Part shown: piece by piece, positions 2,217 to 7,184 of the stretch
Layout: the number at the start of each line of letters is the position of its first letter
Position numbering within the stretch: the first letter of the stretch is position 1
Assembly (NCBI GenBank): GCA_021812205.1
Contig: JAKAOJ010000001.1
Location: forward strand, 1 to 24,193
Length of the DNA stretch: 24,193 nucleotides
Reading direction: 5' to 3'
From: Candidatus Micrarchaeota archaeon
GTDB lineage: Archaea > Micrarchaeota > Micrarchaeia > Micrarchaeales > Micrarchaeaceae
Translations under genes and position numbers: made by a program
The notes under the pieces: model-generated
What the model saw: the letters and a program-made list of their open reading frames with translations, nothing else
The model's database searches: none
Told to the model about the DNA's origin: nothing

Positions 2217-3104
2217 TCAGGACGGGGTGTAGCCGCTCTCCCAGCTGTTCGTGAAATATACATTGCTTGCAGTGCCGTTGTATCCATCGCCAGAGTAATC
2301 GTTTGTATCTCCGTTGAGCGGCCACCATGCCACCAAGTTCTGTATATTTATCGGCACGCCGCCTATGCCCTCGGAGTAGAGCGCATCTATCTGGTTGGTT
2401 GAGAGCGCCGAATCGTATACCTGCACGTTGGAAAGAGAGCCATTGTACATGTATGAGCTGCTCTGCCGTATCTGCCCAAGTTCCAAGCCGAACGGTATGG
2501 GCTGAAGCACAGGCGCCCTCTGCACATTTGCATCCACCAGCGCACCATCCACAAAGCCGTTCGCGTACCAGCTTCCTCCGCTATAAGTGTAGTTCACCGC
2601 GACGAACGTCCATCTGTGCGGATAAATAGACCCGAATTCCATATCCTGGGTGTAACCCTGCCCCAGGATCCAGAAATCCATGGCGCCTGGATTGCCGTCA
2701 AAATAATACAAACCCCACCCATTGTTGCCATTGTCTGCATCTATTATGCCGCCTGGGTTGTATGGTTGGTACGTTTCCGGTTTAATCCACGCTGTGACTG
2801 TGAAGCTTACGGCGCTGGAGCTCGGGAACTTGAATTGGGTCTGCACCACGCTGCTTTGCCCATTGAACTTAGCCACGTACTCCGGCTCGGCGCTGCTGCA
2901 CACCCCTTCTGTGCCGATGAAACGTGTGCTGCCCTGCCCTTCTGGCCTGTAAACTGAACATGCGCCAGGCGGCGCCTTCGGGCTGTAGGTATTGCTATTG
3001 AAGAAACCAAACTGGAACATCGCAGCGAGTACTATCGCGATTATCAGTATCGCCCAGCCGTAGGTCATCAGGTACTCCATCGCGCTCTGGGCATTTCTTT
3101 GCAT
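2217..3104 (-). CDS. Pilin-like surface protein with class III signal peptide and LamG/concanavalin A-like domain
   Basis: N-terminus MQRNA|QSAMEYLMTYGWAILII fits a prepilin cleavage motif with E at +5. C-terminal LamG-like motifs FTVTAWI, WTFVAV, NGSLSNVQVYDSALS and LVAWWPLNG. ATG at 3104 is preferred over GTG at 3113. Confidence 0.85.
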   Translation of the reverse strand: MQRNAQSAMEYLMTYGWAILIIAIVLAAMFQFGFFNSNTYSPKAPPGACSVYRPEGQGSTRFIGTEGVCSSAEPEYVAKFNGQSSVVQTQFKFPSSSAVSFTVTAWIKPETYQPYNPGGIIDADNGNNGWGLYYFDGNPGAMDFWILGQGYTQDMEFGSIYPHRWTFVAVNYTYSGGSWYANGFVDGALVDANVQRAPVLQPIPFGLELGQIRQSSSYMYNGSLSNVQVYDSALSTNQIDALYSEGIGGVPINIQNLVAWWPLNGDTNDYSGDGYNGTASNVYFTNSWESGYTPS

Positions 3105-3137
3105 GATATGCACTTCCTGCGAAACGCTTTATTGCTT

Positions 3138-4244
3138 TCACTTCGCCAGGCCCCTAAGCAGGAACCTCTTCAGCATCTTTGTAGGGCTGTCCATGTCGCC
3201 GTACTTGCTCAGGAAAGCCTCTGCGCCGAACAGCCTAGACACCTTTATCAGTGCCTCAAAGCTGCCCGGGCCCATATTGGAATAGTAGTTATGCAGGGCC
3301 CTGTGCAGCTTAAGGTCAGCGCCGTAAGCCTTGCGCCACTCGCTTTCATATGTCGAAAGCGGCACGCCTCGCTCTGCATGGCGCATTATGACCCCGGCAG
3401 CAATCTTGGCGCATGAAGCTCCGAATATTATTCCGCCGCCTGTTGTCGCCTTGACCTGTCCTGCCGCGTCTCCCACAAGCAGCACGTTGCCTCGTACGGT
3501 CATGCGCCGCGCCTCCAGTGGTATGATGCTGGCGTGGCCTGCAACCATCTTTGCCTCGCCTATCATCGCGCTTACCTCTTTGTCCTTCGTGAAGCTGTGG
3601 AACGCATCAGAGCTGCTGCGTTTCCCGCGGTCGCTGGTCCCTATGCCCAGCTCAAGCTCGTAGCTCGAGTATGGGGCAATCCAGCCGAAGAACCTGTGCG
3701 AATGCCCGGTGGCGAAGAAAAGGTCGACCGAATGGCTGTCCTCAGCTTCCGCCTCCTCATACTCTGCTTTGTAGGTAAGCACATACTCCCCTATTGGCGG
3801 GAAGCCGAATGCAGATGCGACCGTGGACACAGCGCCGTCTGCGCCTACCACTATGTTATCGCCATCTGCCGCAAGCTCCTTTAGCTCCTGCCTCTCCATC
3901 CTGGAGCCCAGCCTGACCTTCGCACCCGCCTTTTCGGCTTCAGATTTGCAGATTGACGCAAGCGCCGCCCTGTCCAGCACATAGGCCTGCGTCGCCTTTG
4001 ACTTTATCCTAAGCTTCTCCCTCCCTGCGTGTAGCACTGCGCCGTCCAGCTCATTGACTATTGCGTTCCTGTAGTCGACGCCCATGTGCGCCAGGCCGCT
4101 CTTGGAGAGTATGCCGGATGCTTTTTCCGCCCCGTCCTCCACGCTACTCTTGCCATCGTACACCTGCACGTCCGCACCGAGCGAAGCCAGGTCCTTCGCC
4201 AGCATCAGGCCCACTACCCCAGCGCCTACTATCGTTACCCTCAT
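3138..4244 (-). CDS. Geranylgeranyl reductase family FAD-dependent oxidoreductase (likely digeranylgeranylglycerophospholipid reductase)
   Basis: Rossmann motif IVGAGVVG, plus GADG, FFGWIAP and LVGDAAGQVKATTGGGI. Confidence 0.85.
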   Translation of the reverse strand: MRVTIVGAGVVGLMLAKDLASLGADVQVYDGKSSVEDGAEKASGILSKSGLAHMGVDYRNAIVNELDGAVLHAGREKLRIKSKATQAYVLDRAALASICKSEAEKAGAKVRLGSRMERQELKELAADGDNIVVGADGAVSTVASAFGFPPIGEYVLTYKAEYEEAEAEDSHSVDLFFATGHSHRFFGWIAPYSSYELELGIGTSDRGKRSSSDAFHSFTKDKEVSAMIGEAKMVAGHASIIPLEARRMTVRGNVLLVGDAAGQVKATTGGGIIFGASCAKIAAGVIMRHAERGVPLSTYESEWRKAYGADLKLHRALHNYYSNMGPGSFEALIKVSRLFGAEAFLSKYGDMDSPTKMLKRFLLRGLAK

Positions 4245-4252
4245 GGTGACCG

Positions 4253-4283
4253 TATTTAAAGCTTTCCATATAAACCTTAATAA
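4253..4283. promoter_or_regulatory. Divergent promoter region between the GGR gene and the half-TBP gene
   Basis: AT-rich TATA-like elements TATTTAAA (4253-4260), ATATAAA (reads TTTATAT on minus) and CTTAATAA in a short spacer between head-to-head genes. Confidence 0.55.
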
Positions 4284-4305
4284 GCACTACTCTGTTGGTG
4301 ATAAA

Positions 4306-4659
4306 ACGGCCGGCAAAAAGGAAAAGAAGGAGACACCAGCAGGGAGTCTCGATAACCCCAAGATAAAGATTCAGAACATCGTAGTCAGTGCGGACCTCCA
4401 CGCAGTCATAGACCTGTTCACGCTTTCGAAGGAGGTCAGGGCCGTCGATTACGAGCCCGAGCAGTTTCCTGGTGCTATATTTCGGGTCACCGAACCAAAG
4501 GCCGTCATAATACTCTTCAAGAACGGCAAGATGATATGCACTGGGGCGAGCACAGAGGCAGACATAAGGAGAGTACTAGACTATGCCGCGAAGATAATGT
4601 CGAAGTACGTCATATCGCTTAACCCTCCAACCAAGGAGAAGGAGCAGAAGGCGAAGTGA
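4306..4659 (+). CDS. Single-repeat TATA-box binding protein (TBP)-like protein, about 117 aa. Probable non-canonical ACG start.
   Basis: One TBP repeat: IKIQNIVVSADL...YEPEQFPGAIFRVTEPKAVIILFKNGKMICTGA. GGTGAT SD-like sequence at 4297-4302 is followed by AAA-ACG. No in-frame ATG/GTG/TTG lies between the intergenic AT-rich region and the domain. The start position is uncertain. Confidence 0.85.
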   Translation, partial: TAGKKEKKETPAGSLDNPKIKIQNIVVSADLHAVIDLFTLSKEVRAVDYEPEQFPGAIFRVTEPKAVIILFKNGKMICTGASTEADIRRVLDYAAKIMSKYVISLNPPTKEKEQKAK

Positions 4660-4666
4660 CTGCCGG

Positions 4667-5803
4667 CTACCCCTCCTTAACCTTCCTGAGCTCCTTGTCA
4701 AAGCTGCTGAAGAACGCATCCCACGAGTAGCGCCTGCGCACCCTGGCCATGCCTCTCCTGCCAATCTCCTCTGCAATGCTCGGATGCTCGACCACGTACC
4801 TCATTTTTGATGCCATGCCCTTCTCGTCATTCACAAGGAACCCTGTTTTGCCGTTGACTATGGTCTCCCTCGGCCCGCCCTCATTGATGGCTATGACGGG
4901 CTTGCCGCTTGCCATCGCCTCTAGGGGCACGAGCCCGTAATCCTCATTAATCGGTGGATACAGAACTGCAGTGGCCCTGCTATAAAGCTCGTCTAGCTGC
5001 TTGTCAGGTACGTTGGTCAGAACCTCAACCCCTGGCACATGCTTCGCCCTGTCCACCACATCGTCGTAGTACTTCCTGTAGAATGGGTCCAATGAGACCG
5101 GGCCCGCAATGATGAGCTTGTAGCTGCTGTGCCGAGCTGTGCGCCTGAACATCCTGAACGCATCTATCGCGAACAGCTGGCGCTTGTTCTGCGATATCCT
5201 TGACGGGTAGAAGAAATACTTGCCGTCACCTTTGCTGCCGTACCTTTCGTAGTCTATTCCGCCGTTGATTACCTTAGCGTCCCTGCCGAAATACTTGCGT
5301 ATCCGTGCCCTTGTGTTCTCGCTGTTCGCCACTATGGACTCTATGTGCTTCACAACGCCCTGATCAATCCTGCGCACCGCGCTGGCGCCAATCCTGTGCA
5401 CCTGGCGCTGCAGCGGCCCCTTCAGCGCCATCCTTGCCTCGTAAAGGTCGTAGATGTCGCGCAGCGGCGTGTGGCAGTACCATAGCACCCTCTCGTTTCT
5501 GTTGCGCACCCAGTGGCTCGGCGCCATATGTGCATTTATCACGTCGTAGTCCTCCTTTATCCTGAGGTTGTAGAATGCCAGCCCGTACTTCAGGCCCTGG
5601 GCTACCCTTCCGTAGGGCAATACGCTACCCATGCCCTTCCTGCCGACGACCTCCACGTCCAATCCGGAAAACTCGGGAAACGTTGCCTCCCTGTCATATT
5701 CTGCGGTGTAGATCTTAGCGTCGTAGCGCTGAGCTATCTTGAGCAGAACGCGCTCGGCCCCGCCCTTCAGCGTGAGGTTCGACTGCGCAATCAGGAGCTT
5801 CAT
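4667..5803 (-). CDS. Glycosyltransferase family 4 (GT-B fold)
   Basis: Begins MKLLIAQ...GGAERV. Contains KRQ and the EDYGLVPLEAMASGKPVIA E-x7-E motif. ATG 5803 is preferred because the longer ORF overlaps SRP54. Confidence 0.9.
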   Translation of the reverse strand: MKLLIAQSNLTLKGGAERVLLKIAQRYDAKIYTAEYDREATFPEFSGLDVEVVGRKGMGSVLPYGRVAQGLKYGLAFYNLRIKEDYDVINAHMAPSHWVRNRNERVLWYCHTPLRDIYDLYEARMALKGPLQRQVHRIGASAVRRIDQGVVKHIESIVANSENTRARIRKYFGRDAKVINGGIDYERYGSKGDGKYFFYPSRISQNKRQLFAIDAFRMFRRTARHSSYKLIIAGPVSLDPFYRKYYDDVVDRAKHVPGVEVLTNVPDKQLDELYSRATAVLYPPINEDYGLVPLEAMASGKPVIAINEGGPRETIVNGKTGFLVNDEKGMASKMRYVVEHPSIAEEIGRRGMARVRRRYSWDAFFSSFDKELRKVKEG

Positions 5804-5885: not shown

Positions 5886-7184
5886 ATGGACTTGGGCGAA
5901 GGGCTAAGGCAGGCTTTGGCAAAGATATCGCGAGCCACGATTATAGACGCCAAGACAATTCGCGAGTTCAACAAGGAGCTTCAGAAGGCGATGCTGACCG
6001 CAGACGTGGAGGTGCCGCTGGTCTTCAGCCTGACGAAAAACATAGAGGAAAAAGCGCTTAAGAGCCGTCCGCCGGCCGGCCTGGCCCCAAGAGATTACAT
6101 AACAAACATAGTGTACGACGAACTGGTTAAGCTGGTCGGCAAGTCATATGAGCCAGAGCTGAAGAAGCAGCGGGTGCTCCTAATGGGCCTCTACGGCTCC
6201 GGCAAGACCACCACAGCTGCGAAGCTCGCCAAGTTCTACCAGGACAGAGGGCTTAGCGCGGGTGTCATATGCTGCGACGTGTCTAGGCCGGCAGCATACG
6301 AGCAGCTCGAGACGCTTGCGAAGCAGGCCAACGTTGCATTCTTCGGGATGAAGGGCGAGGTTGACGCAGCAAAGATAGCAAAGGCCGGCATGGAGGCGCT
6401 AAAGGACAAGCAGGTAGTCATCTGCGACACGAGCGGCAGAAACGCCTTGGATCCGGGCCTGATATCAGAGCTCAAGAGCGTCAACAAGGTGTTTGAGCCG
6501 GATGCGAAAATCCTCGTCGTCAGTGCTGACATAGGCCAGGTGGCCGGCAGACAGACCCGCGAATTCGATTCCGCAGTCAAGATAAGCGGGGTAATTGTAA
6601 CCAAGATGGACGGCTCGGGCAAGGGCGGCGGGGCGCTCAGCGCAGCCAATGCATCGCAGGCGCATGTCCTATTCATAGGCACAGGCGAGAAGATGAAGGA
6701 CATCGAGTCCTTCAACTCGGAGAAATTCATCGGCTCGCTTCTTGGAATACCGGATATAGGCTCGCTGGTTGAGCGCGTGCAGTCGGCCGTGGCGGAAGCC
6801 GGCATAAATCCCGAAGAGGTCGACATCGAGAAGTTCAACATGGACTCGTTCTACACGCAGCTGAAGGCGCTGAACAAGATGGGTCCGCTTAAGAATGTCC
6901 TCGGCATGATGGGCATGTCAGACATGCCCAAGGATGCCGTGGAGAAGAGCGAGAGCAAGTTAGCCAAGTACAAGATAATCATAGCATCTATGACGAAGAG
7001 CGAGCGGAACAACGAACGCCTCCTGCATGAGCACAGCCGCATAGCGCGCATAGCGAAGGGCAGCGGCACTTCTGAGCAGGATGTGCGTGAGCTAGTGTCA
7101 GATTTCAACAAGATGAAGAAGTCGTTCAACCTGATGAAGAACGACAGGAACATGAAGAAGTTCCTGGCAAAAATGGGTGCGTAA
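5886..7184 (+). CDS. srp54: Signal recognition particle protein SRP54
   Basis: NG-domain motifs GLYGSGKTTT, DTSGR, TKMDGSGKGGGALS and GTGE. Met-rich M domain with SRIARIAKGSG. Confidence 0.96.
   Translation: MDLGEGLRQALAKISRATIIDAKTIREFNKELQKAMLTADVEVPLVFSLTKNIEEKALKSRPPAGLAPRDYITNIVYDELVKLVGKSYEPELKKQRVLLMGLYGSGKTTTAAKLAKFYQDRGLSAGVICCDVSRPAAYEQLETLAKQANVAFFGMKGEVDAAKIAKAGMEALKDKQVVICDTSGRNALDPGLISELKSVNKVFEPDAKILVVSADIGQVAGRQTREFDSAVKISGVIVTKMDGSGKGGGALSAANASQAHVLFIGTGEKMKDIESFNSEKFIGSLLGIPDIGSLVERVQSAVAEAGINPEEVDIEKFNMDSFYTQLKALNKMGPLKNVLGMMGMSDMPKDAVEKSESKLAKYKIIIASMTKSERNNERLLHEHSRIARIAKGSGTSEQDVRELVSDFNKMKKSFNLMKNDRNMKKFLAKMGA

Follow-up and report, generated by a model that had tools for sequence, protein, structure and literature searches.

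A half-size TBP gene between opposed neighbours

The window is the whole stretch of DNA that was analysed, 24,193 nucleotides from a tiny Micrarchaeota archaeon from acid mine drainage, whose assembly comprises 406 kb in 69 contigs and is 59% complete. The half-size TBP gene within it and its orthologues are referred to here as class A, and the second kind of half found in the same family as class B. The locus is organised as follows.

3138-4244, minus strand: geranylgeranyl reductase (GGR) family flavoprotein, divergent (TIGR02032, E 4e-42; Pfam FAD_binding_3); conserved upstream neighbour (cluster 12)
4306-4659, plus strand: class A half-TBP gene, 117 codons from ACG at 4306 to TGA at 4657-4659, with the start set by orthologue comparison
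4360-4608, plus strand: single TBP repeat, S1-H1-S2-S3-S4-S5-H2, residues 19-101 (PF00352 positions 1-85 of 85; AF2 model with a TBP fold)
4667-5800, minus strand: GT4 glycosyltransferase, convergent (Pfam Glycos_transf_1, Glyco_transf_4); conserved downstream neighbour (cluster 2)
5886-7184, plus strand: SRP54 (Ffh) (Pfam SRP54, SRP_SPB, SRP54_N); part of the conserved class A neighbourhood (cluster 14)

Frame +1 of 4306-4659 encodes a 117-aa product followed by TGA. The earlier note, made from the letters of this DNA, had described the gene as boxed in by a divergent GGR gene and a convergent GT4 gene, and the Pfam and TIGR02032 matches confirm both neighbours. In each of the 22 family loci fetched with flanks (the window and 21 other genomes), GGR is on one side of class A and GT4 on the other, and SRP54 usually comes next. 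A frameshift or a second repeat was rejected as a candidate, since a six-frame PF00352 search of the whole assembly returns a single repeat, in agreement with the previous statement that no second one can be recovered by frameshift. Neither class B nor TFB is present in this assembly, which is attributed to its 59% completeness: class B is present in all three congeners, and TFB in the one congener that was searched for it.

The window also carries, at 2217-3113 on the minus strand, a 298-aa ORF with a class III (type IV pilin-like) signal peptide, QSAMEYLMTYGWAILIIAIVL. Judged by its sequence, this ORF is probably an archaeal pilin or adhesin-like surface protein.

The class A product is one complete TBP repeat

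TBP is an intramolecular pseudo-dimer and is thought to descend from a homodimeric single-repeat protein. The initial description of the window gene, as one complete TBP repeat that keeps the Asn and both DNA-contacting Phe positions, is borne out. Residues 19-101 of the product match the entire PF00352 profile (positions 1-85 of 85, 89.2 bits, E 1.5e-25, against a gathering cut-off of 22.9 bits), which by profile score places it in this Pfam family, and Asn24, Phe54 and Phe71 are all kept. A phmmer search of the PDB returns archaeal TBPs at E 4e-38 to 1e-34, led by 1MP9 (E 4e-38) and followed by 2Z8U and 1PCZ/1AIS. The AF2 model, made with an alignment of 91 homologues as input, has a pLDDT of 83 (above 90 for residues 20-100) and exhibits the helix-grip TBP fold S1-H1-S2-S3-S4-S5-H2. 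When this model was searched with Foldseek, the top 44 matches were all TBPs, with an rmsd of 0.7-2.4 A over 78-88 columns for most.

By the offsets of the PDB alignments, class A residues Asn24, Val26, Phe54, Ile69, Phe71, Ile77 and Thr79 align with yeast N69, V71, F99, L114, F116, V122 and T124, which we take to be the DNA-contact set, so that the class A equivalents are assigned by alignment. All 91 half-size homologues have Phe54 (within YEPEQFPG), Phe71 (within LFKNGK) and Ile77, and for Asn24, Val26 and Thr79 conservation is 90% or more. The stirrup Y49-E50-P51-E52-Q53-F54, with the P-G after it, is also invariant across this set; the E-P-E-x stirrup before Phe is presumably the TFB/TFIIB contact, after yeast E186/E188/L189. 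Class A therefore has both the DNA-contact residues and the TFB/TFIIB stirrup residues of a canonical archaeal TBP.

Canonical archaeal TBPs (S. acidocaldarius 1MP9, M. jannaschii 2Z8U, P. woesei 1PCZ/1AIS) carry two PF00352 repeats in one chain of ~180-190 aa, whereas class A carries one. This repeat is 38-43% identical to each canonical repeat and shares with them the fold, the DNA-contact Asn/Val/Phe/Thr pattern and the YEPEQFPG stirrup. Against the NCBIfam TBP models (PRK00394), in which two tandem repeats per chain are expected, the one-repeat class A product scores at best 88.6 against a cut-off of 255 (66-89 bits overall, against cut-offs of 181-347). With one repeat per polypeptide, a saddle must therefore form by dimerisation.

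A conserved ACG codon at the start of class A

The frame proposed in the earlier note (4306-4659, plus strand) is correct, but codon 4306 is ACG, so the ORF does not open with a canonical start. The following elements are found upstream of the repeat.

4253-4266, plus strand: putative TATA box TATTTAAA (4253-4260) plus GCTTTC, assigned to the class A gene (motif conserved in orthologues)
4268-4274, minus strand: putative TATA box TTTATAT of the divergent GGR gene, read from the sequence 23 nt upstream of the GGR ATG at 4244
4297-4302, plus strand: Shine-Dalgarno GGTGAT, 3 nt before ACG with AAA between (GGTGAT, GGTGTT or GGTGGT at equal spacing in orthologues)
4306-4308, plus strand: candidate non-canonical ACG start codon, conserved among orthologues

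An in-frame ACG is found 4-5 nt behind GGTG(A/T/G)(T/G) in 45 of the 64 family class A orthologues, and in several of them TAA or TGA lies immediately 5' of it; a minority have ATG, GTG or ATA at this position. In 20 of the 64, no ATG, GTG or TTG occurs anywhere in the open frame that runs from the upstream stop to the domain. The sole canonical in-frame starts upstream in the window are ATG 4243 and GTG 4246, both overlapping the GGR start (4244), and the first one downstream of 4306 is the ATG at codon 76, use of which would remove four of the five strands. Gene callers place the class A start at ATG 4243, inside the GGR start. This candidate was rejected because it overlaps the GGR start codon and because congeners have stops between the corresponding position and ACG. 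Since the Shine-Dalgarno-ACG pair is conserved and the canonical alternatives are closed off in congeners, 4306 is the best-supported start, and translation of class A would initiate at this ACG. As a consequence of the ACG start, gene callers mis-start or miss class A genes. Sister-family class A orthologues start with ATG (7 of 7 fetched), as do nearly all class B genes. One class B orthologue without an obvious ATG (L050, genome G021) has AGGGTG-TTTTTT-ACG in frame upstream of the domain, and ACG initiation may extend beyond class A to class B as well.

Near-cognate starts are used for dosage control in other systems, such as AUU in bacterial infC and ACG in eukaryotic and viral genes. Class A resembles these genes in having a conserved non-AUG codon at a position dictated by the ribosome binding site, and here too dose may matter. 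It differs in that ACG is not a listed table 11 start, that no feedback loop is known, and that its use is deduced from the sequence.

Upstream of the start, the motif (G)TAT(T/A)TAAA(G/C)CTTTC is found at a distance of ~45-55 nt in class A orthologues. The motif TATTTAAAGCTTTC recurs 5' of class A orthologues and is similar to the one found at class B promoters, and family promoters carry TATTTAAAGCTT. The spacer between the GGR and half-TBP genes (4245-4305, 60 bp) contains two opposed TATA-like boxes ~10 bp apart, TATTTAAA at 4253-4260 on the plus strand and TTTATAT at 4274-4268 on the minus strand. The GGR gene is probably leaderless, and the half-TBP transcript looks to have a ~20-nt leader with a Shine-Dalgarno site. 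A fully symmetric TBP had been proposed in the earlier note to be orientation-blind and suited to palindromic TATA boxes or divergent promoters. The spacer does hold such opposed boxes, but the idea is not necessary: archaeal promoter polarity is set by TFB-BRE contacts, so transcription can be directional even from a symmetric saddle.

The lack of ATG, GTG or TTG near the domain, with gene callers reaching back to ATG 4243, is what would be seen if the ORF were a decaying remnant, truncation or misassembly of a two-repeat TBP, untranslated for want of a start codon. Such a remnant is very improbable, however, given that architecture and neighbours are identical in every fetched family locus across independent assemblies, that the Shine-Dalgarno-ACG pair is kept in so many orthologues, and that a second repeat is absent in all frames of the assembly. 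Relatives with a two-repeat TBP at this locus, or an absence of purifying selection, had been named beforehand as arguments against a genuine half; the same half is present there in all relatives fetched, and selection is strong. Calculated by the Nei-Gojobori method over the domain, dN/dS is 0.009 between class A of the window and its congeners (dN 0.016, dS about 1.7), with a median of 0.08 over 86 usable class A pairs and 0.12 for class B. Thus, class A is under strong purifying selection, and dN/dS values of 0.01-0.08 argue against decay.

Half-TBPs across Micrarchaeota

The distribution of TBP repeats was assessed by PF00352 searches of 41 relatives and then of 251 Micrarchaeota genomes at least 85% complete; the window's family has the code f1 and the sister family f3. 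Among the 65 f1 genomes of at least 85% completeness, 63 have at least two PF00352 matches (exactly two in 59, three in 3 and four in 1), while one has a single match and one has none. The f1 matches listed are ORFs of about 100-145 aa and the halves are unlinked, single-contig genomes included and suspect short contigs excepted; in genome G012, for example, they are found at 119 kb and 882 kb. Class A and class B are both present in each of the three congeners searched. Identity to the window protein is bimodal, at 61-94% for class A and 49-59% for class B. A two-repeat TBP co-resident with the halves was not found by the PF00352 search in the congeners or in most of the family, and TFB is present as one ordinary two-repeat copy in each relative examined. 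Among the options that the earlier note had raised, pairing with an unlinked half in a split TBP is therefore the one that fits best, with at least two matches in nearly all family genomes, listed halves unlinked and no two-repeat TBP.

Two genomes, G013 (locus L002, contig C43) and G029 (L038, C77), do carry a canonical-type two-repeat TBP with FPGL and SSGK/RSGK motifs, on short contigs (3.7 kb for G029). These are of a non-Micrarchaeota type and are probably contamination from co-occurring archaea. Class A without class B is seen in two incomplete genomes (G084, 92% complete; G268, 88%), and class B without class A in two genomes of genera that have both. Two A-only and two B-only genomes are about what a completeness of 85-92% predicts, and on the basis of G084 and G268 a class A that stands alone is conceivable.

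Half-size TBPs extend well beyond this family. A word-based search of 5.8 billion proteins recovered 614 homologues; 81 of the 120 homologues listed are single-repeat proteins of 83-174 aa with 62-99% identity, and most of those with a named source are from Micrarchaeota. Of the genera in the sister family f3, ten carry class B alone, consistently over up to 7-9 genomes per genus, and others have both classes. Beyond the order, the sole PF00352 match is one half-size ORF in many families, among them f7, f10, f11, f12, f14-f18, f20, f22 and f25-f27, with genomes rated 97-100% complete and several genera consistent across 4-9 genomes each. A two-repeat TBP gene is found in families f4, f9, f13 and more. 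Since one half is the only TBP in many Micrarchaeota families, the homodimer must be the working TBP there, a conclusion that the distribution nearly forces. The homodimer suggested for the window gene in the earlier note is thus viable in principle, but the sole halves that make it so are class-B-like and not class A. In one genome of the single-half family f7 (G112), three near-identical half-TBP copies are present, one in the rpoF-DUF655 slot and two elsewhere (L087, L088, L089); duplication of halves therefore recurs independently of class A.

Class A is a diverged paralogue of class B

To assign gene slots, the ORFs on either side were clustered. The neighbours of class B, of the sole halves and of the two-repeat TBPs are rpoF (Rpb4) and DUF655, in most cases with ksgA as well, and class A never has them. 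Class B thus shares the slot of the canonical TBP gene beside rpoF, although, unlike canonical TBP, it belongs to a family with two unlinked paralogous halves. By this synteny, class B is the positional orthologue of TBP in the ancestral slot and class A is an added paralogue at a new locus.

In the sister family, the class B protein hardly changes whether or not class A accompanies it (81% identity on average, 92% at most), and no position within the fold is fixed differently. As class B is unchanged by the presence of class A, it looks able to homodimerise still, and class A looks like an add-on. Class A itself forms one clan with a long stem in the repeat tree (SH-aLRT 98-99, stem 0.67). 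Positions that are conserved within both classes and differ between them are as follows, in the numbering of the window protein.

Position 27: Val in class A, Ala in class B
Position 35: Ile in class A, Leu in class B
Position 41: Ser in class A, Ala in class B
Position 44: Val in class A, Ser in class B
Position 67: Val in class A, Ala in class B
Position 68: Ile in class A, Leu in class B
Position 69: Ile in class A, Leu in class B
Position 90: Val in class A, Ala in class B

In addition, class A has Gln23 (Glu in class B), a DLHA motif and a conserved C-terminal KYVIS(LNP), which forms a short extra strand in the AF2 model. On strand S4, positions 67 and 69 face the DNA, and they align with yeast T112/L114 and V203/L205. 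We take two of the three substitutions in the altered-specificity mutant TBPm3 to be at yeast V203 and L205, which would make that mutant a lead for positions 67 and 69.

These differences bear on whether class A acts with class B or by itself. An A:A homodimer could constitute a second TBP, fully symmetric and with a somewhat altered TATA preference, that serves a subset of promoters in the way that haloarchaea use their multiple TBP paralogues. Every DNA-contact and stirrup residue is kept in class A, the sole halves of other families show that homodimers suffice, Val67 and Ile69 on the DNA face differ from class B and are conserved within the class, and its long stem branch, with strong conservation thereafter, is the pattern that a new function typically leaves. 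However, if ACG initiates weakly, scarce A would mostly meet B by mass action, and with a single TFB such a homodimer has no dedicated partner. A separate A:A factor is therefore unlikely, though a real contender.

A regulatory role was also considered, in which class A caps class B or titrates TFB and so dampens initiation as a dominant-negative or decoy. Class A is accessory, having been lost without replacement in about ten sister-family genera, and its weak-looking ACG start would suit a dose-sensitive regulator. A decoy, however, needs no DNA-contact residues, yet Asn24, Val26, Phe54, Phe71 and Thr79 are at least 90% conserved, two of them invariant, and class A dN/dS is as low as that of class B. 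Because the DNA-contact residues are all conserved, the dominant-negative role put forward in the earlier note is disfavoured, and we regard it as improbable.

Neither N-like nor C-like: origin of the halves

The earlier note had held that the class A repeat most resembles the C-terminal repeat of TBP. This was assessed with N- and C-repeat profiles built from 75 canonical TBPs, for which the difference between C and N profile scores is +16.5 bits for canonical C repeats and -14.5 for N repeats. Class A scores -1.3 bits (range -5.5 to +6.5), well short of a C repeat. Elsewhere the difference is -3.9 for class B and -5.2 for sole halves, and in the two-repeat Micrarchaeota TBPs it is -0.6 for N and -1.5 for C. 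Summed per-column log-odds place class A at -6, versus +31 for canonical C repeats and -28 for N repeats. A few features of class A do lean towards C, namely Gln23, Val67, the better PDB alignment to C repeats and the best NCBIfam stretches, which fall in the C half; class B is N-leaning by those measures (residues, PDB alignment, NCBIfam). The grouping of class A with canonical C repeats is not rejected by the AU test (p 0.48). The YEPEQFPG stretch on which the resemblance had been based is common to all Micrarchaeota repeats. With neutral profiles and few C-like features, the claim does not hold as made, and a C-terminal-like character of class A is weakly supported.

All 86 Micrarchaeota repeats fall together as a single clan (SH-aLRT 83) when placed in one tree with 80 canonical repeats, and FPGAI and LFKNGK are common to Micrarchaeota repeats, versus FPGL(I/V) and F(S/A)SGK in canonical ones. 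The N and C repeats of two two-repeat relatives have 42 and 29 consecutive identical residues in common, encoded by stretches in which 124 of 126 and 84 of 87 nucleotides are identical (L077:3968-4543, plus strand; L080:3995-4567, minus strand). Such runs point to gene conversion that continues within the gene, or to a very recent duplication; either would have erased N/C identity in these relatives, and conversion blurs the signal of origin further. Based on the tree, the synteny and the sole-half lineages, we tentatively favour an origin of A and B from duplication of one half rather than from a fissioned N/C pair.

A proposed saddle assembled from separately encoded halves

The reading that we prefer is that class A is a functional single-repeat TBP subunit and that the saddle of this family is assembled from separately encoded halves, to which we assign a probability of roughly 0.78. 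We infer that class A dimerises, which partner it takes, that it binds DNA and TFB, and how the ACG acts on expression. Within this reading, by rough odds, a mainly A:B heterodimer comes close to an even chance, and a mainly A:A homodimer with altered TATA preference appears distinctly doubtful.

In the mechanism proposed, class A would have originated as an extra paralogue in the ancestor of the order, then relocated to the GGR/GT4/SRP54 locus and diverged. It would pair across the central beta-sheet, most likely with class B and possibly with a second copy of itself too. Ten strands would then make up the saddle, which would bind TATA DNA and bring in the single TFB via the YEPEQ stirrup. 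With A paired to B, the asymmetry of the two lobes, which ordinary TBP holds in cis, would be regained in trans, and a weak ACG start would keep A sub-stoichiometric to B. The wider form of this proposal is more tentative, and rather less likely to be right than wrong: that all initiation in Micrarchaeota is by half-subunit TBP saddles, and that in the window's family B and an ACG-initiated A re-evolve N/C asymmetry in trans, with A:B as the main factor and the stoichiometry set via the near-cognate start.

Relation to known single-domain TBPs

Proteins made of a single TBP domain have been described in Halobacteria (TbpA) and Thermococcales, in every case alongside a full TBP (Brindefalk et al. 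2013, PMC3597702). These monopartite TBPs are, like class A, stand-alone single TBP domains in Archaea. They differ in that they coexist with at least one full-length TBP and that the Thermococcales group is highly diverged from TBP, whereas the Micrarchaeota halves are near to bona fide TBP repeats. Class A thus shares the single domain of the TbpA type but not, in the congeners and most of the family, its co-resident full-length TBP, and does not belong to that type. The closest counterparts are class B and the sole halves of other Micrarchaeota families, which resemble class A in clan, size and charged tails. Compared with those halves class A is derived, in its long stem, new locus, ACG start, Gln23/Val27/Val67/Ile69/Val90 and KYVIS(LNP) strand.

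We know of no organism described that relies on TBP halves. In the roughly 8.4 million papers and preprints searched, nothing describes a single-repeat TBP as an organism's only TBP, the nearest being Brindefalk et al. 2013; "monopartite TBP" occurs once in a poxvirus paper. A DPANN survey simply scores TBP as present, and in such surveys the half size goes unremarked. A whole archaeal lineage appears to rely on half-TBPs, with a second, diverged half added in the window's family. A natural series is formed by single halves, pairs of unlinked halves and the two-repeat genes of other families, in which homogenisation of the repeats continues; with this series, the tolerance of saddle symmetry, TFB polarity on a symmetric TBP and the origin of asymmetry become testable. 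If the proposal is true, these lineages would be living representatives of the proposed homodimeric TBP ancestor and of its first step to asymmetry.

Transcripts of class A

Three metatranscriptomes of the mine-drainage study yielded no RNA contig of the class A locus of the window, and the examined part of the expression tables in the Ca. Micrarchaeum harzensis co-culture paper holds no TBP rows. One 527-nt RNA contig (run X2, depth 14) does match window positions 4492-4541 at 90% and, judged by the QFPGAIFRIQ and GTNTEVNIRK encoded in its flanks, corresponds to the class A gene of a relative. This contig gives a weak hint that class A genes are transcribed in situ.
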